Part shown: one piece after another, positions 47,984 to 56,389 of the stretch
Layout of the letters: each line of letters opens with the position of its first letter
Numbering within the stretch: position 1 is the first letter of the stretch
Assembly: GCA_963833575.1 (NCBI GenBank)
Contig: CAWHXY010000007.1
Span: forward strand, 576,001 to 640,000
Direction: 5' to 3'
DNA: 64,000 nucleotides
Source of the DNA: Candidatus Bathyarchaeota archaeon
Lineage (GTDB): Archaea; Thermoproteota; Bathyarchaeia; Bathyarchaeales; Bathycorpusculaceae
Notes under the pieces: generated by a model
What the model saw: the letters and a program-made list of their open reading frames with translations, nothing else
What the model was told of the DNA's origin: nothing
The model's database searches: none
Position numbers and translations under genes: made by a program

Positions 47984-48661
47984 ATGTTTGGACAATTTGG
48001 GCCTGTCTTGCTTCATTGGAATTGGATCCTTCAAGGACTACAGTTGACAATTGAAATTACGCTTTTCGGGGTCTTTTTAGGGCTAGCTTTGGCAATCGTG
48101 CTGGCAATTGGCGATATTTACGGAAACAAGGTACTTAAGGGAATTATCGCAGTTTATGTAGAAGCTTTTAGAGGCAGTCCATTGCTTGTTCAATTATTAA
48201 TAGCTGAATACACCATACCAGCAATAACGCATATTCCAATTGACCCGTATATTACAGCTTTCGTAGTTTTTGGAATAAACAGTGCCGCATACCAGAAAGG
48301 CTACCTCAAAGGGGCAATGGAAACCATATACGAAGATCAAATGCAAGCTGGGCTGTCAACAGGTATGTCCAAATGGCAAACCTTAAGGTACGTCATTATT
48401 CCTCAAGCTTTGCGTATTGTTATTCCTTCGTGGACAAACGAGTTCTGCTCTCTAACAAAGAGTTCCTCTGTTGTATCTTATGTGGGATTATATGACGTAG
48501 TGGGCGCAGGCAGAGAAGTAATTGGACAATTCTATATTGTTCTCCCAGTCTGGTTAGTCATTGGATTAATTTATCTAGCGTGGATTACCGGGTTCACGAA
48601 ATTAATGGATTACATTTACGAGAAAAAGAAGATTCCTGGCGTAGAACTGCTAATGCAGTAA
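47984..48661 (+). CDS. amino-acid ABC transporter permease
   Basis: FRGSPLLVQL, IPQALR, LTKSSS. Confidence 0.9.
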   Translation: MFGQFGPVLLHWNWILQGLQLTIEITLFGVFLGLALAIVLAIGDIYGNKVLKGIIAVYVEAFRGSPLLVQLLIAEYTIPAITHIPIDPYITAFVVFGINSAAYQKGYLKGAMETIYEDQMQAGLSTGMSKWQTLRYVIIPQALRIVIPSWTNEFCSLTKSSSVVSYVGLYDVVGAGREVIGQFYIVLPVWLVIGLIYLAWITGFTKLMDYIYEKKKIPGVELLMQ

Positions 48662-48970
48662 ACGGAGCGTTTAGACGTTTAGTTTCTTAATTAGCCACGC
48701 AATGCAATTCTGCCCAAGCTTACCGAATAATTATTCAGTCTTGGACCAATGAGTTTTGTTCTTTGACAAAAAACACTTCAACATTTAAAGTTCTTTTATT
48801 CGAGCAGTTGAAATAAAGTTATGTTTATCAAAGCTTTCGTTTGAATTTTACTTTATTCTCATCCTAATACTAAAGTCTACTCTTAATTTCTTAGGATAAT
48901 ACAGAAAAAAACAAGTTAGAACTGAGGTGAGCTTTCGATGCCTTCAAGCTGTGAGTTCTGTTCAAATATT

Positions 48971-49578
48971 TCAAATCAAATTGACTATTGATTTGTACTC
49001 TATTTTTGCAACAGTATAGTTCTCTTGCACACTTGGGTTGATAATGTAAAAAGTTAATACCTGACCTATTTTTTGTACTGGTGAATAATCGGTTGCTGAA
49101 ACTAATGGTCCCCAACTTTCTGGAACACTGAAATTCTGAGAACTTCCAGCGTCAATGTACATTGATTGCGTGGTTGAGTTTTCCGTTGTGGAAGTTGGTC
49201 CAATTGGTTGTCCAATGACATTGTAACCCTCAATGGTTTGTATCATGACAACTGAGAAAGTTCCGCTCTGATTATCAAGATTCATTACGCTAACATAACT
49301 TGGAAAATACAAGTTTTGGGAAAACGAGTTCTTAGAATCTATTGTTCCATGAATTGGTAATTACTTTGCAGAGTTTTCGTTCTTTGCTCTTGTATAGCGA
49401 TCTTTATGGGAATTATAGGTTCTGTTACAACAAGAATAATTGCAATCGTAATTACAACAGCTAAAACTGGCACGATAAGTCGTTTGTATTTGGACAGATA
49501 TTTGTTTGGAGTTTTGGGAATCAAAGTAGTTTGTCTGAAGTATTTACGCTTCATCTTAGGTCGGATATTGCTTACCAT
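48971..49578 (-). pseudogene. frameshifted single-TM membrane protein gene (ORFs 49339..49593 and 48971..49312)
   Basis: adding one base near 49350 joins ...QSNYQF to (N)GTIDSKNSFSQNLYFPSYVSV...; ATG 49578 is 23 nt from the repeat-A TATA. Confidence 0.55.
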
Positions 49579-49601
49579 AAAAACATAAAGCAATCATAAC
49601 A

Positions 49602-49677
49602 GATAAAAGGCTACTCGTAAAAGTTCCTTGACTGAGTTTAGTCAAACTTTCTTGACTTGGCTGGTTTTTCGATGCCT
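49602..49677 (-). repeat. repeat A copy 1 (triple box core 49628-49657 plus promoter)
   Basis: gataaaaggctactcgtaaaagttcc TTGACT gagttt AGTCAA actttc TTGACT tggctggtttttcgatgcct. Confidence 0.9.
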
Positions 49678-50403
49678 AAGCATTAACAGAAGAGGTATCG
49701 CTCCGAGGATTGCAAATAGTGCTCCAATAATCAGTGAAGAGGAAATGAGACTGTTCCATGACATCTTTAGGTCTGAATACCAATCTGGTAACAAATAGTT
49801 GTTGCTTTCAAAGTTGACCCATAAGTTGGATAAACCAAAAAAGAGAATGCTTGTACCACCAGCAAGAGAAACAGATGCAAGTCTTCTTCCAATGCCAATA
49901 CCCCATATTATTCCGAGAACAATCAAGAAAGAACCAATTAAGAGGTACCCCAAAAGAGTTACCTGCATATTGAACACCACTAACGAGATTAAAAATTGTG
50001 GCGAAACATCAGGCGGCACAATATCTTGTACTGGGACGGACAAATTCCAAAAATCAATAATATTGATATACCAATGTACCCAATAAACCAATAAAATGTA
50101 CGTTACAATTGCTATGAGCGTAAATCCAACTGCTATTAAGCAGTAGAACACTTTGCTTTTGATTTGTCGAATTATTGCAATCCCGATAACGGCAGAAAAT
50201 GCCCCTGCAATTAAGCAAACGCTAATGAGTGGTGCTTGAACATACCAGAAATAAAATCGATTCAGATAGCCCTCGGCTGAAAACTCGTTGATTTCAAGAT
50301 AATATGCTAATATGACTACTGCAATAATAATTAAGGCTAATCCGATAGCAACTGGAATGTATCCTCGTTTGTCTTTTTTCTTTGTCTTTTCCAAAGTTGC
50401 CAT
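49642..50403 (-). CDS. polytopic membrane protein ending in RHRKT tail
   Basis: about 6 TM segments; stop codon lies inside repeat A copy 1. Confidence 0.75.
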   Translation of the reverse strand: MATLEKTKKKDKRGYIPVAIGLALIIIAVVILAYYLEINEFSAEGYLNRFYFWYVQAPLISVCLIAGAFSAVIGIAIIRQIKSKVFYCLIAVGFTLIAIVTYILLVYWVHWYINIIDFWNLSVPVQDIVPPDVSPQFLISLVVFNMQVTLLGYLLIGSFLIVLGIIWGIGIGRRLASVSLAGGTSILFFGLSNLWVNFESNNYLLPDWYSDLKMSWNSLISSSLIIGALFAILGAIPLLLMLRHRKTSQVKKV

Positions 50404-50405
50404 AA

Positions 50406-51570
50406 CTACTCACTCAAGTTAGCGGTTTTTCGACTCCTTCGATAAATCAGCAATAGGACAACGACAACTAAGATGATTACGAGAGATGTAATTAAAATAA
50501 TCATAAGAGCACTCAGATATGGAAGCGGATGATGGTCAACGTTATTAGCGTCAATAACATAAGCAAACGGGTTATTGTAATCACTCCAATAATTGCCAGT
50601 TGACCCTTTATCCCATAAAACCATATCTGTTCCATTATTAACATAGCCAACGTCATATGGAAACGCATGTTCGACTTTTGCGTTTATTTTATTGTAGATA
50701 AAATGATTGTTATAGACAACGTTTCCTATACCTAATGGGTAGCCATCAACTCTAAGTGGAGCGAGAGATGAAGCTGTTGCAAAATTCATCAGGTCAATGC
50801 CTATTTGATTGTAGGCTAAATTATTATCCTGTACGATAGAATCACTACAATTTTCGCCAAATTGGATACCGTATCCAGTATTGTATGCTATGTTATTACT
50901 GTTAATGTAGAAAGGACCGTAAAAGCGAATAAGCACACCATTTGCATTATGTGATATATCGTTGTGATTCACAGTTACATTTTGGCTTGAATCAATAATT
51001 ATCGCTGTACCTTTGTTATCAGTTATGGTATTGTTTGAGATTTATGCTATTTGACGAAGCGAAGTAAATACCGTAGCCATCATTATTTGTTATGCTGTTT
51101 GAAGAGATAACGTTATTATCGCTAACTTCTGAGTCAATTCCTGCAAATTCGGAGTTTTCAATTTTGTTGTTGGTTATTTTGCAATTGCTGTTTGGCAAGT
51201 GTATTGCCGTTGGATAAAAACTACTGATAATTGTAAAACCTGAAAGGACAACATTATCGACTGTAATATCAATTAAGGCATTTGCGTAATAACTTGCTGT
51301 TCCTTCAATAGTTGTTGCTTGGTTATCCTGTCCGATTAATGAAACAGATTTGTTAATAGTTATTCCCGTGAATCCTGTAATATTGTATATTCCATCTTTT
51401 ACATACACGGTGTCTCCTGCACTTGCATTGCCTATTGCTTCTTGAATGGTTGGGTATTGGTCGGGAACAACAAGCGTTTTTGGGGAATCAGCCTTAACAA
51501 CAGAGTTTGAAACTAAAACTAACGACATTCCAAAAAAGAAAACAATCACTAAGGCTAAACACTTGTTCAT
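50406..51570 (-). pseudogene. frameshifted NosD/CASH beta-helix surface protein
   Basis: removing one T from 51041-51043 fuses ...ASSNSI to ISNNTITDNKGTAIIIDSSQNVTVNHND...; VPDQYPTIQEAI, GNYWSDY, TM plus RRSRKTAN. Confidence 0.8.
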
Positions 51571-51615
51571 ACTACCCCATCCCTCTTCCTTAATCTTGTC
51601 ATGGGCTGATGGTTC

Positions 51616-51681
51616 AATAAAAGTATTGCAGTAAAACTTCCTTGACTGCTATTAGTTAAACTTTCTTGACTTGCTGTCTTC
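51616..51681 (-). repeat. repeat A copy 2 (core 51642-51671)
   Basis: aataaaagtattgcagtaaaacttcc TTGACT gctatt AGTTAA actttc TTGACT tgctgtcttc. Confidence 0.88.
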
Positions 51682-51704
51682 AAGTCTTCTTTTCAAGTGT
51701 TTTA

Positions 51705-51790
51705 AACTCAAACCCTCCGGCATTTTAGGCGGGGAATCGAATTGAACCCACACTCCAGTAGAGATTTCACCCGCATTTCCCCTTTTTTTT
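51705..51790 (+). repeat. repeat B copy 1 (structured element ending in T-tract)
   Basis: aactcaaaccctccggcattttaggcggggaatcgaattgaacccacactccagtagagatttcacccgcatttcccctttttttt. Confidence 0.85.
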
Positions 51791-51863
51791 ACGTGAACCT
51801 TCCTTTTATCAAGGTAATCGTTTAGAGTTCAGTTTAAATTCTGGAAACCAAACGAAAGAAAGC

Positions 51864-51919
51864 AGGGGGTTGGACTTGTACCCACACTTCTGTGGAAACC
51901 CATCCTCATTTCTTTTTTT
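51864..51919 (+). repeat. repeat B divergent/partial copy
   Basis: agggggttggacttgtacccacacttctgtggaaacccatcctcatttcttttttt; same stem layout. Confidence 0.6.
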
Positions 51920-52002
51920 AATCAAATTTTGTTCGAGCTATTCGTCCTGACTACCTTTTAAATCACGATAATTCAATACAGCCAACCTCAAAAAGAAAAA
52001 GC

Positions 52003-52194
52003 ATGACATCTTCTAACCAAAATGTGACTGGCAGTTATGCAGTTTGCCCAAAATGTGGTTTTAAAAGGATAACAAAAGATGGAACCTATAGGATGGAAAC
52101 AAAACATGGAATGAATTTTTTCTTAGTAGATGCTTACGTCTGTGATAATTGCGGTTATATTGAGTTTTATAAGATGAGAGAGCCTATTTTGTGA
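52003..52194 (+). CDS. small zinc-ribbon protein (DUF2082-like)
   Basis: CPKCG...YVCDNCGYIEFY; TTTTAAA TATA upstream. Confidence 0.7.
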   Translation: MTSSNQNVTGSYAVCPKCGFKRITKDGTYRMETKHGMNFFLVDAYVCDNCGYIEFYKMREPIL

Positions 52195-52205
52195 CCAGTT
52201 TTTGA

Positions 52206-52289
52206 AGAGTACCGCTTTTGCCGTTGCTCCTTTCAATGTTCTTTGTTGCTGTGATAGTTAGGAATCGAAAAACCGCAAACATGAAATGA
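52206..52289 (+). pseudogene. orphan C-terminal membrane-anchor fragment
   Basis: reads RVPLLPLLLSMFFVAVIVRNRKTANMK* with an in-frame stop immediately upstream; matches array tails but on the opposite strand. Confidence 0.6.
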
Positions 52290-52308
52290 GATAACAGAGT
52301 CAGGGTTG

Positions 52309-52389
52309 AACTCAAACCCTCGGGCACTTTAGATGGGGAATCGAATTGAACCCACACTCCTTGGAGACTTCTCTGCATCTCCTTTTTTT
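52309..52389 (+). repeat. repeat B copy 2
   Basis: aactcaaaccctcgggcactttagatggggaatcgaattgaacccacactccttggagacttctctgcatctccttttttt. Confidence 0.85.
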
Positions 52390-52392
52390 GTT

Positions 52393-52683
52393 CTAAGAAG
52401 GGTTCTGTTTTGTGTCTTCGCTCGTAGTTATTATTATTCTTCCTCGAATTCCAAGATAACCTGCCGCTACGACTACCAACCCAAGAATAAATATGACAAT
52501 GCCACCGCTTACATGTGAAAGAGCCCCCGTGTTAGCTAAAGTTATGCTGCCAAAATTAGTTAACCCATTAATGGCATTGAAAAATCCAGAACTTATTAAA
52601 ACAACACCTAATAAAGCAATTATTGCCCAAAAAATCTGTATAGTGGGTCTACCAATCTTGATAATTATCGTCATTCTGGTCAC
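52393..52683 (-). CDS. small two-TM membrane protein
   Basis: two hydrophobic helices; GTG start with AAGGTGA-like context. Confidence 0.6.
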   Translation of the reverse strand: MTRMTIIIKIGRPTIQIFWAIIALLGVVLISSGFFNAINGLTNFGSITLANTGALSHVSGGIVIFILGLVVVAAGYLGIRGRIIITTSEDTKQNPS

Positions 52684-52702
52684 CTTTCATAAGCTACAAC
52701 GC

Positions 52703-53527
52703 TTAAAAGATTTTAGAACTTAATGTTTTTTGATACCTTAGTATTATTGCAACAGAGAGCGTCATGAGAAACAAAGGCAGAATCGCCCACAAAGGAAACT
52801 CCGGAACGGCAGGAGTTGGAGTCGGCGATGATGTTGAAGTTGGCGTTGGAGTTAACGTTGAGTTTAAGGATAACGGGGTAGGCGTTGGGTTTGACGAGGG
52901 AGATGCAGTGATTGAAGTAGAAGTTGACCCGTTAGATATGGTTATGGTTTGTGTGTTGCTCCAACCGCTTGATTGACCTGTAAAGTCTTCAGCACCATAA
53001 AGGGAATAAGGGGAAGGAACCGTTATCCAATACCCTATTGTTGCTTCTACTTGAAAGTCTACTTGACCGCCAGCGATAACTTCGGCTTGACCGGTGTTCC
53101 AGATTGGAGTGTATGAACCATTATACAGGGTCACCTCATAGCTGATGACCGTGTATTCAGAATTACTCGCAGGAACCCATGTGGAAATTGTATTCCATTC
53201 GTTGCCGTTGCTGAAATGTCCTTCTTCCTGAACGTTGTACGTCAAGCTAAGTGTGGTGCCGTTCTCAAGAGCGTTCGCATTAAAAGCTTGGTTTAGAATC
53301 ACAATCTGCACCGTGTCGTTGGCATACGTGTGCGTTACGGTTGCTCCTGTATCCGTATTTGTTGTGTTCACACTGTAAGATGATTCAGTGTATGTTACAC
53401 TAAACTCTGGAGCCGATGGTGTGGGTATCGACTGAGCAAATACGGGTTTAACTATCATTAGACTTAAACTTGAGATAGCGATGATTAGAATCAGAATAAC
53501 TGCGAAACTCTTGATTGTTCTTCCCAT
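52703..53527 (-). CDS. secreted surface protein with PT linker and PEF-CTERM-like sorting signal
   Basis: signal peptide, PTPSAPEF, SGWSNTQTITI, VPEFP-TM-RYQKT. Confidence 0.85.
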   Translation of the reverse strand: MGRTIKSFAVILILIIAISSLSLMIVKPVFAQSIPTPSAPEFSVTYTESSYSVNTTNTDTGATVTHTYANDTVQIVILNQAFNANALENGTTLSLTYNVQEEGHFSNGNEWNTISTWVPASNSEYTVISYEVTLYNGSYTPIWNTGQAEVIAGGQVDFQVEATIGYWITVPSPYSLYGAEDFTGQSSGWSNTQTITISNGSTSTSITASPSSNPTPTPLSLNSTLTPTPTSTSSPTPTPAVPEFPLWAILPLFLMTLSVAIILRYQKTLSSKIF

Positions 53528-53550
53528 AGTTATAGCTAGAAATGATTTTG

Positions 53551-53633
53551 GATAAAAGACTTCTCGTAAAAATATCTTGACTGATTTAAGTCAAAGTTTC
53601 TTGACTTCCTGAGTTAGCGGTTTTTCGATGCCT
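53551..53633 (-). repeat. repeat A copy 3 (core 53577-53606)
   Basis: gataaaagacttctcgtaaaaatatc TTGACT gattta AGTCAA agtttc TTGACT tcctgagttagcggtttttcgatgcct. Confidence 0.9.
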
Positions 53634-54515
53634 TCTATAAAATACTACGCTTAAAACTACTATGACGACTGCTCCACTTGAGACAATGACAATACTTAAC
53701 GTTGGCAAGTTAGTCGGCATAGGCAAAAAACCCTCAGTCTTTATAAGGTAAATTGTGCCCGACATTGGGATATCAACCGCCTCATATCCGACTCCCATTA
53801 TAGCAAGTGCGCCATCGGAAGTTTCAATTACTGAAGCTACCTTAAGAGGAGTAGCATATCCATATGGGTTCGTATAGTTCAAATTTAACACCCATTGAGT
53901 GTTATTATTGGAATCGGTTTTGATTATGCTTCCACCTGTCCAATAAGCAAACCCATCATCGCTTGTTCTAATCTTTCCGACTGATGAAGGGTCTAAATCG
54001 ACTAATGAAGAAGTCAATGAAGGAGTTACTTCTAAATTCGGAACGCTTGAATAGTTTCTAACAGATTCAATGTTTCCTTGAGGGTCCATTTTGATAAGAT
54101 TATATTCAAAAGCAGAATTATCCCAATATCCTGAAACTTCCAGTCCTCTATCGCTTGTCTGCTTAATTGCTAATCCAAGAATGTTATTGATGGCTTTTGT
54201 CCAGTTGATATTTCCCGAAGAGTCAACCTTGAAAACTATTGAGGGTGCAAAATTACCGTAAGAACCCCAACCTTCATCCATGAAGACATACCCACCATCA
54301 CTTGTCTGAATCAGATTGGAAACAGCTGCGACACCTTGAACCATATTGGTTACAGCTTGAACACCTGTGCCGTTGAAAAAAGCACCATATGTTTGTTGCC
54401 AAGCTATAGCAGGTGCTTGATTACTTGACTGTGCCTTGACAATGGTTGGTTGAACGGTTACTAAAGGTGTTAGAAGTAAGACAAGAACACTCATTAAAGC
54501 CAAACACTTGTTCAT
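53586..54515 (-). CDS. secreted C-anchored TSDGGY-repeat (propeller-like) protein
   Basis: signal peptide MNKCLAL, QTSDGGY repeats, TM plus RRHRKTANSGSQETLT. Confidence 0.85.
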   Translation of the reverse strand: MNKCLALMSVLVLLLTPLVTVQPTIVKAQSSNQAPAIAWQQTYGAFFNGTGVQAVTNMVQGVAAVSNLIQTSDGGYVFMDEGWGSYGNFAPSIVFKVDSSGNINWTKAINNILGLAIKQTSDRGLEVSGYWDNSAFEYNLIKMDPQGNIESVRNYSSVPNLEVTPSLTSSLVDLDPSSVGKIRTSDDGFAYWTGGSIIKTDSNNNTQWVLNLNYTNPYGYATPLKVASVIETSDGALAIMGVGYEAVDIPMSGTIYLIKTEGFLPMPTNLPTLSIVIVSSGAVVIVVLSVVFYRRHRKTANSGSQETLT

Positions 54516-54558
54516 TCTATCCCATCAATCTTCCTTAACCTGTGAGGGAGCTATTGAT

Positions 54559-54638
54559 GATAAAAAGATATTCGTAAAGGTTCCTTAACTGAAATTAGTC
54601 AAAGTTTCTTGACTTCCTGATCTAGCGGTTTTTCGATG
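54559..54638 (-). repeat. repeat A copy 4 (core 54585-54614)
   Basis: gataaaaagatattcgtaaaggttcc TTAACT gaaatt AGTCAA agtttc TTGACT tcctgatctagcggtttttcgatg. Confidence 0.9.
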
Positions 54639-55571
54639 TCTCCTATAAATTAACAGAACAATACTTGAGGCAACAACTACCGCTAAAAGTGCAATTATTA
54701 GAATTTGTTCATTAACGGTTATTATGTTGGGAGCTGGTGTGGGACTTGGTAAAGGTGTCGATAAAGGACTTTGTGACGGCAAAGGCAAAAATGCAGCAGT
54801 TTTCATTAAATAAATAGGACCCCATAAACCTTGAGGTTGCAAATAAGGGTCTGCAATGCCAAGACATGCAAGTGCTCCATCTGATGTTTCGATGATGGAA
54901 AATATTTTAAAAGGAAAAGTGATGGTGCCATTATAATAATTTGAAGGAATTGGATAAGGGAAATTTTCAATCCATTGTGTATTGTTATTTGGATTAGTTT
55001 TCACAAGGGTAGGAAAAGACGTTACTGTAGGAAAAACGTTTGAGTTTGCTGGTTCAAAGTAAGCGAACCCACCGTCGCTGGTTTGAATATTTGATGAGGC
55101 AATGGCTAAGTCTAAAACCGTAATTGTGTTTTCATACCATTGCATATTTCCCTTAGAATCGGTTTTAATGACAGCTGGTGTGTCAACGTAGGTGGTTCCG
55201 TATGTTGACCATTGTCCTGATATTTCATATCCGCCATCGCTGGTTTGAATGAGGTTTGACGCTGTAAATGATTTGATAGTTTTATTCCATTGCATATTGC
55301 CTAAAGAATCAAGCTTGTAGAGAATTGCAGGAGTAAAAAAGGTCTGGTAGAACTTGGCGCAATCTAAAAAGGCGTATCCACCATCACTTGTTTGAATCAA
55401 ATTAGAAACTAATTGAGTATTTCCTGACCCATATAATTTTTGCCATTGGGTGGCAGGAAAGGAAGTGGTGCTTGAGGTTTGGGCTGAAACTAAAGTAAAT
55501 TGAAGAATTATTAAAGATATTATGAAAACAGCAACGAGGAATGAATCGAAACTTTTGCTTAAACTACGCAT
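54585..55571 (-). CDS. secreted C-anchored TSDGGY-repeat protein (paralog of 53586..54515)
   Basis: VSNLIQTSDGGY, IETSDGALA, TM plus RRHRKTARSGSQETLTNFS. Confidence 0.85.
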   Translation of the reverse strand: MRSLSKSFDSFLVAVFIISLIILQFTLVSAQTSSTTSFPATQWQKLYGSGNTQLVSNLIQTSDGGYAFLDCAKFYQTFFTPAILYKLDSLGNMQWNKTIKSFTASNLIQTSDGGYEISGQWSTYGTTYVDTPAVIKTDSKGNMQWYENTITVLDLAIASSNIQTSDGGFAYFEPANSNVFPTVTSFPTLVKTNPNNNTQWIENFPYPIPSNYYNGTITFPFKIFSIIETSDGALACLGIADPYLQPQGLWGPIYLMKTAAFLPLPSQSPLSTPLPSPTPAPNIITVNEQILIIALLAVVVASSIVLLIYRRHRKTARSGSQETLTNFS

Positions 55572-55594
55572 AATTACACAAAAGAATCGTATTC

Positions 55595-55663
55595 GATAAA
55601 AGCCTATTCGTAAAAGTTCCTTGACCGAGTTTAGTCAAGGTTTCTTGACTTGACTGTTTTCGA
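55595..55663 (-). repeat. repeat A copy 5 (core 55621-55650)
   Basis: gataaaagcctattcgtaaaagttcc TTGACC gagttt AGTCAA ggtttc TTGACT tgactgttttcga. Confidence 0.9.
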
Positions 55664-55680
55664 GCCACCGTTTAGCGTTG

Positions 55681-55759
55681 AACTAAAACTCTCCGGCAAT
55701 TCAGGTGGGGAATCAAATTGAACCCACGTAGCAGTGGAAACTTTCCTTGAATCTCTTTT
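55681..55759 (+). repeat. repeat B copy 3
   Basis: aactaaaactctccggcaattcaggtggggaatcaaattgaacccacgtagcagtggaaactttccttgaatctctttt. Confidence 0.8.
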
Positions 55760-55813
55760 ACTGAAATTAGGGTTTGAAATTTGTTGCGGGCTAGTGGCAA
55801 ACATATTTGATTG

Positions 55814-56389
55814 TTAAGATTTGAGTTTTTTTAGCAGCCAAGCTATATTTTGGCCTAAGTCATCCATTGTTTGCATGGCTTCGTTATCTTTTTCAACATC
55901 GCCTTTGTTTAAGCCTATTCCTATATTCCAATAGGATGAGCCAGGAATTATCATCTCGCTAATGAGAAAGAAATGATTTATAGCATCAAATGTCGGAATT
56001 GCACCTGCCCTTCGAACTGCAACAACTGCGGCACCAACTTTTCTCCTAAATAAATCAGAATTAGCTCGACTGACAAATCCTGAACGATCAATAAGAGCTT
56101 TCAATTCAGAAGACATCATTGAAAAATAAGTTGGAGAACCAAGGATAATTCCATCTGCCGCAACCATCTTTTCGATATATAGGTTAACATTATCGTTTAC
56201 AATTTTGCATTGCTTATTTTTGATTTTGAAGCATACACCGCAAGCTGTGCAACCGTGAATTTGCTCGCCTGCTAACTGAATTAGTTCGGTTTCTATTCCT
56301 TCACTTTCAAGAACCTGCAAGACCCGGCGAATCAAAATAGCAGTGTTTCCATCTTTCCGTGCGCTTCCATTAAAAGCAACAACCTTCAT
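55814..56389 (-). CDS. iron-sulfur flavoprotein / NADPH-dependent FMN reductase family
   Basis: [16 protein letters not shown]-6-C, GSPTYF, RRAG. Confidence 0.9.

Follow-up and report, generated by a model that had tools for sequence, protein, structure and literature searches.

A tandem inverted-repeat promoter element as the probable operator of a surface-protein regulon in a Candidatus Bathyarchaeota genome

We consider a short DNA box that recurs in a window of 64,000 nucleotides (the whole stretch of DNA analysed here) from an uncultured Candidatus Bathyarchaeota archaeon (Bathyarchaeia). Judged from its sequence and placement, the box serves, with a probability of about 0.85, a regulon of surface-protein genes as its operator or upstream activating site, and its five window copies would be the promoters of neighbouring regulon genes. 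The motif is previously undescribed and of an ordinary kind; it is very probably not a gene-shuffling site. An earlier note on this DNA had left two readings side by side, an integron-analogous array served by a trans-acting recombinase and a regulon duplicated together with its operator. The second is supported by the fixed orientation of the box and its fixed distance to the TATA-like box and start codon, by a location mostly at isolated promoters, by occurrence in two genera and by spacing that changes in steps of ~10 bp.

Architecture of the box

Scanning the window for TTGACT-N6-AGTCAA-N6-TTGACT with at most three mismatches gives 11 matches where 0.08 are expected from shuffles, a number reached in none of 100 shuffles of the window. 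The matches are the five copies already reported (49628, 51642, 53577, 54585 and 55621), with 0 or 1 mismatch, together with the same copies 12 bp out of register, and the five copies are thus real. A repeat search of the window finds a 94-nt unit around them (family D1, 61-81% identity to the reference copy), which contains GATAAAAG, the TATA-like box that had been described as part of the unit. The half-sites do follow a 12-bp period as claimed, but a fourth, degenerate half-site (TTTACG) continues it, so the box unit is two tandem inverted repeats AGTCAA-N6-TTGACT, the proximal one degenerate, and "triple box" is a misdescription. Where variants have 10-11 additional bases separating the inverted repeats, the middle palindrome is absent.

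The two repeats measure 16-18 bp each and lie 24-25 bp apart from centre to centre. Read on the minus strand, the module is AGTCAAGAAAsTTTGACT - AAnnTC - AGTCAAGrAAcTTTTACG - aatAGc - CTTTTATC, in which CTTTTATC is a weak, T/A-rich, BRE/TATA-like element that starts ~7 nt after the proximal repeat ends (23 aligned copies). The start codon follows ~24 nt past the TATA-like element, which would make the transcript leaderless or near-leaderless, or ~44 nt past it with a Shine-Dalgarno sequence. The five modules of the window are:

55593..55652, minus strand: promoter module 5 (profile E 1.7e-15); distal repeat 55633-55650, proximal repeat 55609-55626, TATA-like box 55595-55602; predicted target ORF 54585..55571 (minus), ATG at 55571
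54557..54616, minus strand: promoter module 4 (profile E 1.2e-13); distal repeat 54597-54614, proximal repeat 54573-54590, TATA-like box 54559-54567; leader of ~43 nt with AAGGAAGA, then ATG at 54515 (minus)
53549..53608, minus strand: promoter module 3 (E 1e-14); distal repeat 53589-53606, proximal repeat 53565-53582, TATA-like box 53551-53558; ATG at 53527 (minus)
51614..51673, minus strand: promoter module 2 (E 3.8e-11); distal repeat 51654-51671, proximal repeat 51630-51647, TATA-like box 51616-51623; leader of ~45 nt with AAGGAAGAGG, then ATG at 51570 (minus)
49600..49659, minus strand: promoter module 1 (best match, E 7.4e-17); distal repeat 49640-49657, proximal repeat 49616-49633, TATA-like box 49602-49609; ATG at 49578 (minus)

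Because the array genes are all on the minus strand, each box lies upstream of the lower-coordinate gene and downstream of the higher-coordinate one. Three minus-strand ORFs end within the core, 49642..50403 (...SQVKKV*), 53586..54515 (...SQETLT*) and 54585..55571 (...SQETLTNFS*); their stop codons fall at core offsets 14, 9 and 0, so that two reading frames are used, in agreement with the earlier observation of stops in different frames. The array genes are so tightly packed that the last few codons of the preceding ORF overlap what would be the next promoter. The same ends of upstream ORFs, inside or just before the box, could be taken as the mark of an RNA element between genes: in read-through transcripts the palindromes would fold into hairpins serving as terminator, attenuator or processing site. 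Alternative hairpins of 6-8 bp can indeed be drawn, but folding predictions give weak structures that vary from copy to copy (z-scores -0.14 to -1.63 against shuffles), no T-run follows the palindromes, most copies have no upstream gene in the same orientation, and Rfam gives no match; we regard such an element as extremely improbable.

The module across the genome and its relatives

With a profile built from the copies, the whole genome yields the ~60-nt module at 22 loci (E<=1e-5) on seven of its eight contigs. Within the array the copies sit at junctions of co-oriented genes, as had been stated, but they are not confined to such places, since 17 of the 22 lie outside the array. A location mainly at isolated promoters is what the earlier note had itself listed, among its refuting outcomes, as making the box an ordinary operator. 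The TATA-like box is on the same side at all 22 loci, and at 16 an ORF of at least 40 aa stands directly behind the module, its start 73-103 nt from module position 1 (most commonly 80-82). Read by eye from the sequences, all but one of these 16 ORFs have a signal peptide or membrane segment at the start, and 12 end in a hydrophobic anchor and a basic tail. Pfam assigns the box-driven proteins NosD, PQQ, Kelch, BNR or BsuPI domains, or nothing. Six loci are without a close ORF behind (contig:position C5:18094, C1:68271, C2:22386, C8:163298, C6:75463 and C7:360883), and one of these six points antisense into a regulator gene.

Among genomes of the genus, 40 of 41 have a module match at E<=0.01, with a best E<=7e-9 in 39. 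In a sample of 41 genomes of the order the module is matched in only five, namely the window's genome, one other of its genus and all three of a second genus (g16), and it was not found in the other 36 (29 further genera); a reversed-pattern control gives no matches. The g16 modules also precede secreted, anchored proteins. At the TATA position other species have only T/A-rich words (TTTTATC, TTTTAAC, TTAATAT, TTTATAT).

Neighbouring GTCAA-N6-TTGAC sites in this genome are 24 (8 pairs) or 25 bp (3 pairs) apart, start to start, with no other spacing up to 70; at loci fetched from other genomes the spacings are 23-26 (38 pairs), 33-35 (14) and 43-45 (4), with none between. These classes form a pattern as for proteins on one face of the DNA.

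Activator-like layout and known systems

Combining this information, we propose that the "triple boxes" form the upstream halves of conserved archaeal promoter modules, ~60 nt long and read on the minus strand. One sequence-specific DNA-binding protein would bind as two dimers on the same helix face, the proximal dimer touching TFB/TBP at the adjacent BRE/TATA. Through the shared box some twenty genes scattered over the genome, whose products are secreted surface proteins with a membrane anchor, could be switched together. Going by position, the bound proximal dimer most likely activates transcription by recruitment. Known archaeal activators have a tightly constrained dimer site a few bp upstream of the BRE, and their additional sites are two or three helical turns distant (PMC2995911). 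Here too the position of a palindromic site is constrained, a few bp in front of BRE/TATA, and additional sites are phased by whole helical turns.

The alternative is that the same operator is a repressor site, at which the bound protein blocks the access of TFB/TBP until a signal de-represses the genes. The proximal repeat does abut the BRE/TATA region, and the gene of a protein that we call TF-B, paralogue of one candidate regulator (below), has a strong TATA followed downstream by palindromes, as is classical for repressors. The box repeats, however, are wholly upstream of BRE/TATA, their TATA-like element is weak (TTTTATC or TTTTAC) against TTATTTAAATA at the TF-B gene, and the layout fits the activators as described in PMC2995911. 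Repression is accordingly rather unlikely, at well under an even chance.

Several described systems have parts of this arrangement. The Lrp-type regulators Ptr2, LysM and Ss-LrpB resemble it in having a dimer site close upstream of the BRE, and the regulator's own gene can carry sites (PMC2995911). Lrp-type boxes, however, are 13-17 bp with an AT-rich centre (PMC6396743) and arms ~8-9 bp apart, a distance worked out from consensus sites in PMC2715240, while the arms here are 11 bp apart, so the geometry does not fit; no Lrp/AsnC protein is implicated, and the regulon consists of envelope proteins, not metabolism. At the flaB promoter of Sulfolobus acidocaldarius, ArnR/ArnR1, membrane-bound HTH activators, act through two inverted-repeat boxes, TCGAC-N5-GTCGA, both needed for binding (PMC6396743). 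The present element likewise has two inverted-repeat boxes upstream of surface-protein gene promoters, and membrane-anchored winged-helix proteins, candidates only, are its best phyletic match. It differs in repeat sequence and geometry (5+6+5), in candidates with an ArsR-type domain, one membrane segment and a large outer domain instead of the HAMP and two C-terminal segments of ArnR, and in targets that are ~20 unrelated secreted proteins rather than type IV pili. EarA of Methanococcus maripaludis, finally, uses four copies of a 6-bp site at the fla promoter that are required for transcription of one operon (PMC6396743); repeated short sites upstream of surface genes are shared, but here a palindromic pair is spread over ~20 promoters.

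Candidate regulators

Our best lead for the box regulator, a tentative one, points to membrane-anchored winged-helix proteins of ArsR type, which form a family. In the order sample a 430-aa member has full-length orthologues in all five box-positive genomes and in none of the 36 box-negative ones, a match that rests on two lineages. Its paralogues adjoin boxes at C7:12146-13141 and C8:162363-163220, with GTCCAGAAAACTGGAC in their promoters, and in all three g16 genomes the promoter of the paralogue there contains a double palindrome resembling the box. Against these observations stand the following. The 430-aa protein was not found at E<=1e-40 in seven of the 41 genus genomes; among these, G003 (one contig) has five box matches and only a 360-aa paralogue, and G042 has 12 box matches. 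G049 has the protein and no box match. In this genome no box is present in the protein's own promoter, and a box stands beside the start of an orthologue at one of 12 loci scanned (G045), plus G046.

A second, distinctly weaker lead is TF-A, a cytoplasmic multi-winged-helix protein with the box in its own promoter. At least 16 genomes have the box in front of a TF-A gene; the TF-A paralogue TF-B instead has a double palindrome of its own, ATGAC-N4-GTCAT, in 33 of 33 clade members. Four box-rich genomes (G046, G014, G005 and G007) gave no TF-A, and the family was not found in g16, while it is present in genera without boxes.

The surface-gene island

We turn our attention to the array itself, which is a young, mosaic, partly decayed, lineage-specific island, with the following features in it and at its edge:

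48705..55676, no strand: the island, a ~7-kb array
54585..55571, minus strand: 328-aa secreted protein with repeated IQTSDGGY motifs, C-terminal membrane anchor and tail YRRHRKTA
53586..54515, minus strand: 309-aa paralogue of the 328-aa protein, same C-terminal tail (YRRHRKTAN), repeat families D5-D7 and D10
52703..53527, minus strand: 274-aa secreted protein, PEF-like C-terminal anchor (VPEFPLWAILPLF...)
52393..52683, minus strand: 96-aa membrane ORF; this ORF and the 274-aa gene's 3' end are jointly 95% identical to C6:81869-82313
50406..51570, minus strand: gene for a NosD-like surface protein (right-handed beta-helix), split into ORFs 51019..51570 and 50406..50972, PF05048 on both
49642..50403, minus strand: 253-aa polytopic membrane protein, paralogue of C8:163281-163982
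48971..49578, minus strand: a short ORF of 79 aa that has a membrane segment and another of 113 aa, both behind module 1
55678..55765, plus strand: D3 repeat copy C, immediately beside module 5 at its distal edge; in G009 it is conserved together with the FMN-reductase gene
51702..51790, plus strand: D3 repeat copy A, immediately beside module 2 at its distal edge; diverged partial copy at ~51865-51896
52306..52395, plus strand: D3 repeat copy B, directly after a plus-strand remnant of anchor-tail coding sequence (~52240-52290)

For the 328-aa protein no Pfam family was found; it is possibly a beta-propeller, a lead only, the nearest clusters in a feature search being PQQ/SBBP-like at 0.83-0.90. 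The 274-aa protein, to which Pfam and NCBIfam gave no family, falls in Bathyarchaeota clusters only and is the commonest gene kind behind the box. The NosD-like gene is probably a pseudogene, and the gene of the 253-aa protein, which has no box of its own, starts 3 nt past its end. A decayed copy of anchor-tail coding sequence near 48930 follows the two short ORFs, and together they are probably one broken gene. D3 is a second repeat of ~90 nt with a T-run at the end in most copies.

The question of recombination at the box

The island is flanked by an ABC permease gene ending at 48661 and an FMN-reductase gene (55814..56389), which are adjacent in seven other genomes of the genus; in G009 a different 2.3-kb insert takes the island's position. 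Such a lineage-specific array, the inverted half-sites, and the several homology tracts between paralogous modules that stop within 1-2 nt of the box distal edge (e.g. 52767-53607) are what would recommend the integron-like reading, in which a site-specific (tyrosine) recombinase acting in trans would use the boxes as core sites to capture, excise or reorder surface-gene cassettes. In integrons an integrase gene with attI adjoins the array, and promoterless cassettes each end in attC. The present array shares with attC/attI arrays its co-oriented unrelated genes, a repeated element with inverted symmetry and a variable island. Neither an adjacent integrase with attI nor promoterless cassettes is found here; unlike integron cassettes, each unit has its own promoter. 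The element is mostly at single promoters, its orientation and distances are fixed, and its repeat spacing changes in whole helical turns, a variation incompatible with a strand-exchange core. The window has no match to PF00589 (tyrosine recombinase), consistent with the reported lack of a recombinase, and the five PF00589 genes of the genome are at least 4 kb from any box, the nearest 4 kb off elsewhere on the contig. Other breakpoints of the mosaic fall inside a gene and inside a D3 repeat. We therefore consider the integron-like reading very unlikely. No core-to-core joints were seen in the contigs of the single public run containing the stretch, but its data (34% of words, depth 0-5) are too sparse for this to carry weight.

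What survives of the cassette idea is the lineage-specific mosaic with tracts ending at box edges, and ordinary homologous recombination among paralogous modules explains both. A possible addition to the operator reading, not competing with it and somewhat doubtful, is that the module is a promoter and also a portable homology tract of ~60-90 nt, which with the anchor-tail coding sequence and D3 would allow homologous recombination or gene conversion to duplicate, swap and delete promoter-gene units among surface-protein islands. Segment 52343-52783 is 95% identical to the C6 segment listed above and 52767-53607 is 85% identical to C8:156534-157336; composites of box and D3 occur at four places, many tracts end at the box distal edge, and several island genes are broken. 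Selection alone, however, would also be expected to let tracts end where a conserved element does.

The tails of the proteins deserve a last remark. VPEFP..., VPELS... or VPEIP... tails are visible in five box-driven proteins, and others have the YRRHRKTAN tail without PEF. PEF-CTERM proteins, as archaeosortase substrates, are marked by a C-terminal PEF motif with a membrane helix and a basic tail, in a genome that also encodes an archaeosortase. NCBIfam reports no CTERM model at E<=0.01, and the genome has two PF09721 genes.

Architecture of the box

The five copies of the 30-bp core TTGACT-N6-AGTCAA-N6-TTGACT that the earlier note located at 49628, 51642, 53577, 54585 and 55621 of the window are all present. 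With up to three mismatches allowed, the pattern matches the window 11 times where 0.08 matches are expected, and the 11 are the five copies with their 12-bp-shifted registers. A repeat search places the copies within a 94-nt unit, with 61-81% identity to the reference copy. All genes from 48.9 to 57.4 kb in the window ORF list are on the minus strand, and on this strand the promoter unit (the box, with its window copies called modules 1 to 5) reads AGTCAAGAAAsTTTGACT-AAnnTC-AGTCAAGrAAcTTTTACG-aatAGc-CTTTTATC. The fourth half-site, TTTACG, is degenerate and explains the shifted matches. The element is therefore two inverted repeats in tandem, AGTCAA-N6-TTGACT each, 24 bp apart, in place of the triple box originally proposed, whose "middle" palindrome is missing from longer-spaced variants. 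The observation that three ORFs stop within the core in two frames holds (they end in SQVKKV, SQETLT and SQETLTNFS, each followed by the stop).

A T/A-rich box lies ~7 nt beyond the end of the second repeat. From this box the distance to the start of the next ORF is ~24 nt in modules 1, 3 and 5 and ~44 nt, with the Shine-Dalgarno sequence AAGGAAGA ahead of the start codon, in modules 2 and 4; the geometry is presumably the one known from archaeal BRE/TATA promoters whose mRNA has a short leader or none. The possibility that the box is an RNA element was discarded, the predicted folds being weak and differing from copy to copy. Over the whole window, Rfam at gathering score gives no match and a tRNA search finds none.

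Neighbouring GTCAA-N6-TTGAC sites (at most one mismatch of 10, at most 70 nt apart, start-to-start) are separated by 24 (8 pairs) or 25 (3 pairs) in this genome and by no other distance, while loci from other genomes give 23-26 (38 pairs), 33-35 (14) and 43-45 (4) with none between. By hand tally, the match span minus the model span is -1 to +2 in 137 of the 150 profile matches listed, +8 in one and +10 or +11 in 12, with none from +3 to +7. Cooperative binding on one DNA face predicts such steps of one helical turn (PMC2995911), which a strand-exchange core would not easily explain. The 24/34/44-bp series is a textbook signature and a possible guide for binding assays.

Distribution and conservation

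The scan of the genome for the core that the earlier note had suggested yields, with the module profile at E<=1e-5, 22 loci on seven of the eight contigs (C1-C8), 17 of them outside the window array (48705..55676). Five are clustered in this array, and an island at C8:157-164 kb contains three more; the others are single or paired. The pairs lie at C6:3.9-7.9 kb and C7:13-15 kb; the second C7 box (15.5 kb, E 0.002) is a weaker match that does not count among the 22. Two sites are readable in both directions. Behind 16 of the 22 boxes an ORF that is 40 aa or longer begins 73-103 nt further on. Judged by eye, the N terminus is a signal peptide or a membrane segment in 15 of the 16, and in 12 the C terminus is a hydrophobic anchor plus basic tail; Pfam assigns NosD, PQQ, Kelch, BNR or BsuPI domains, or none. 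The sixteenth ORF encodes TF-A, a protein of 328 aa with several winged-helix domains. At the other six loci no ORF stands close to the box on that side, and a search for small ORFs behind the boxes at C1:68271 and C2:22386 found none. One box promoter, C8:163241-163298 (L001:7240-7299 in its locus), faces the 3' end of the membrane-anchored winged-helix gene C8:162363-163220 in antisense orientation and is without an ORF behind it.

The comparison with related assemblies, also suggested earlier, is positive in 40 of the 41 genomes of the genus by the module profile (best E<=7e-9 in 39, and as many as 64 matches in one relative) and in all three genomes of g16, a genus of another family. The strict pattern occurs in 28 of the 40 other genomes of the genus and its reversed control in none. 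Within a sample of 41 genomes of the order, the box is found in five, namely the window's own genome, one congener and the three of g16, and in none of the remaining 36. The double repeat in g16, with AAAAACCCTTTT, stands ahead of secreted, anchored proteins including NosD-like ones, and does likewise in two further members of the window's genus (G046 and G014).

Judged from these sequences, the box is a real, conserved and previously undescribed element, a predicted operator or upstream activating site of a Bathyarchaeia surface-protein regulon. The earlier suggestion of a dedicated regulon with its operator is supported by the conserved box ahead of secreted-protein genes in both genera. The Bathyarchaeia are abundant and almost wholly uncultured, and we know of no described regulon or operator among them; the best 10 full-text matches on promoters, transcription factors and palindromes include none that names the Bathyarchaeia, which is weak evidence of absence. 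The finding opens no new kind of genetic system. It provides a sequence-only handle on surface genes predicted to be co-regulated, ~20 in this genome, as well as testable regulator candidates.

Among described systems the nearest is that of ArnR/ArnR1 in Sulfolobus, membrane-bound HTH activators that require two inverted-repeat boxes at a surface-structure promoter (PMC6396743). The Lrp-type activators Ptr2, LysM and Ss-LrpB have a site layout equal to that of the box (PMC2995911). From both, the box differs in repeat sequence and geometry, candidate protein architecture and regulon breadth, and we claim membership in neither.

Candidate regulators

There are two candidate leads to the box-binding protein, TF-A and a group of membrane-anchored ArsR-type winged-helix proteins. 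The TF-A gene (C4:1179000-1179986) has a variant of the box whose proximal repeat is perfect, and at least 16 genomes have a box ahead of a TF-A-type gene. In all 33 clade members, the gene of the paralogue TF-B (69% identical) has instead two copies of ATGAC-N4-GTCAT, placed downstream of a strong TATA. The box at the one and another palindrome at the other suggest that this family autoregulates through paralogue-specific palindromes. In the TF-B promoter (C4:595098-595199 in the window's genome, and loci L054-L082) the strong TATA TTATTTAAATA is directly followed by two palindromes ATGACGCNTGTCAT, an arrangement that looks like a classical autorepressor operator. As the box-binding regulator TF-A is weakened, because searches do not find it in the box-rich genomes G046, G014, G005 and G007, and because genera free of the box have its family whereas none was found in g16. 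Compared with solved structures, the TF-A sequence gives weak ArsR-type matches only (E 0.03 or worse).

The second lead centers on a 430-aa protein (C6:257329-258618). In the order sample, all five box-positive genomes have a full-length orthologue of it and none of the 36 box-negative ones does, a phyletic match that comprises two lineages only; within the genus, 34 of the 41 genomes have it. Boxes are present with no orthologue found in G003 and G042, G049 has the orthologue and no box match, and a box beside the orthologue's start is seen in G045 and G046 only. Two paralogues (C7:12146-13141 and C8:162363-163220) adjoin boxes and have a palindrome of the box kind, GTCCAGAAAACTGGAC, before their own promoters; in all three g16 genomes, a double palindrome resembling the box stands at the paralogue there. 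At the three g16 box loci examined there is no regulator gene behind the box.

One ArsR-type membrane-anchored subfamily has GTCCAGAAAACTGGAC upstream together with a conserved GTCTACAAAAGAGGGATTAAATA promoter at C8:162273-162294, C7:13197-13214 and C4:813.6 kb. A 56-63-aa CxxC...HxxC protein stands behind a "regulator-type" box variant in two TF-A-lacking species (L131, L146 and L149; G046 and G014); it was rejected as the regulator, there being no counterpart in the window's genome.

The island and its recombination

The array lies between two flanking genes:

ending 48661, ABC permease gene (left flank)
55814-56389, FMN-reductase gene (right flank)

These flanks are at most ~300 nt apart in seven relatives (G002, G003, G005, G011, G012, G042 and G045; G011 and G003 were checked). 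G009 has an unrelated 2.3-kb insert between them, with an ArsM-like methyltransferase and others, and in G013 the flank region is altogether different. The ~7-kb array is therefore a lineage-specific island. It is a mosaic: several of its genes are broken, and it has pieces in common with two other islands of the genome, one at 95% and one at 85% identity.

The earlier note had also considered an integron-like array, with breakpoints at the core. Several homology tracts do stop at the distal box edge, and others stop within a gene or within D3, a second repeat. The note saw no recombinase in the window, and none of the genome's five tyrosine-recombinase genes lies there; the shortest distance from such a gene to a box is 4 kb. 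Four of the five are less than 20 kb from a contig start (C1:827-1542, C2:778-1704, C4:4201 and C7:19451) and two of these adjoin genes for tRNA-Cys and tRNA-Gln, a setting that points to integrated elements breaking the assembly. One public DNA run contains 34% of the sampled window words, and no RNA run with the stretch was listed; contigs of three public runs are fragments of 130-391 nt without joints between cores, an uninformative data set. One odd piece joins 55613 to 53577 with 7 letters between; it comes from a run with only 2% of the words, was placed at a 90% likeness threshold, and is most likely the box of a relative. With spacing by helical turns, no recombinase near and mostly single boxes, the integron-like array is not borne out. 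We read the island as probable ordinary multigene-family turnover, with conserved promoters among the homology tracts and no site-specific system.

D3 and the anchor tails

Two further sequences recur in the island (window coordinates):

51702-51790, D3 copy
52306-52395, D3 copy
55678-55765, D3 copy
51865-51896, diverged piece of D3
50417-50446, tail coding sequence
53612-53641, tail coding sequence
54620-54649, tail coding sequence
49660-49680, tail coding sequence

D3 is ~90 nt long (GGGTTGAACTCAAACCCTCCGGCA...GGGGAATCGAATTGAACCCACAC...), with its T-run end on the plus strand in most copies. Its 13 genome copies are clustered in surface-protein islands, and four of them adjoin the distal box edge in divergent orientation. 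Copies in other species are 87-93% identical while the genes of those species are ~70% identical; BLAST with one copy finds 4 of 41 genus genomes, and short 87-93% matches are seen in more. A structured RNA was rejected, single folds being no better than shuffles and a nine-copy consensus reaching -2.97 kcal/mol with almost no covariation; Rfam around D3 gives chance-level matches only. A coding reading of the minus strand (WVQFDSP...) was dropped because copy differences, judged by eye, show no bias to silent positions.

Surface proteins that are otherwise unrelated share the C-terminal cytoplasmic tail Y-R-R-H/S-R-K-T-A-N, and the DNA encoding it is itself conserved (GCGGTTTTTCGATGCC, 77-90% identity over 30 nt); a common signal for sorting or retention is one possible role, a tract for recombination another.

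Promoter module, anchor-tail sequence and D3 could together form a modular "plug-and-play" system, in which a secreted-protein gene landing between modules would join the regulon of the candidate membrane-anchored sensor-regulator and recombination between common modules would keep reshuffling a strain-specific surface proteome. Taken as one claim we consider this improbable; if true, it would be functionally analogous to cassette arrays, built on promoters and without a dedicated recombinase.

Directly before the second D3 copy, at 52240-52290 (plus strand), is an anchor-tail coding remnant ending in VAVIVRNRKTANMK and a stop, without a gene body, a further sign of island decay. At the left island edge, just past the permease stop, 48707-48785 is a decayed fragment with ~80% identity to an internal part of the relatives' ABC permease gene, its counterpart being the permease part at ~48396-48470.
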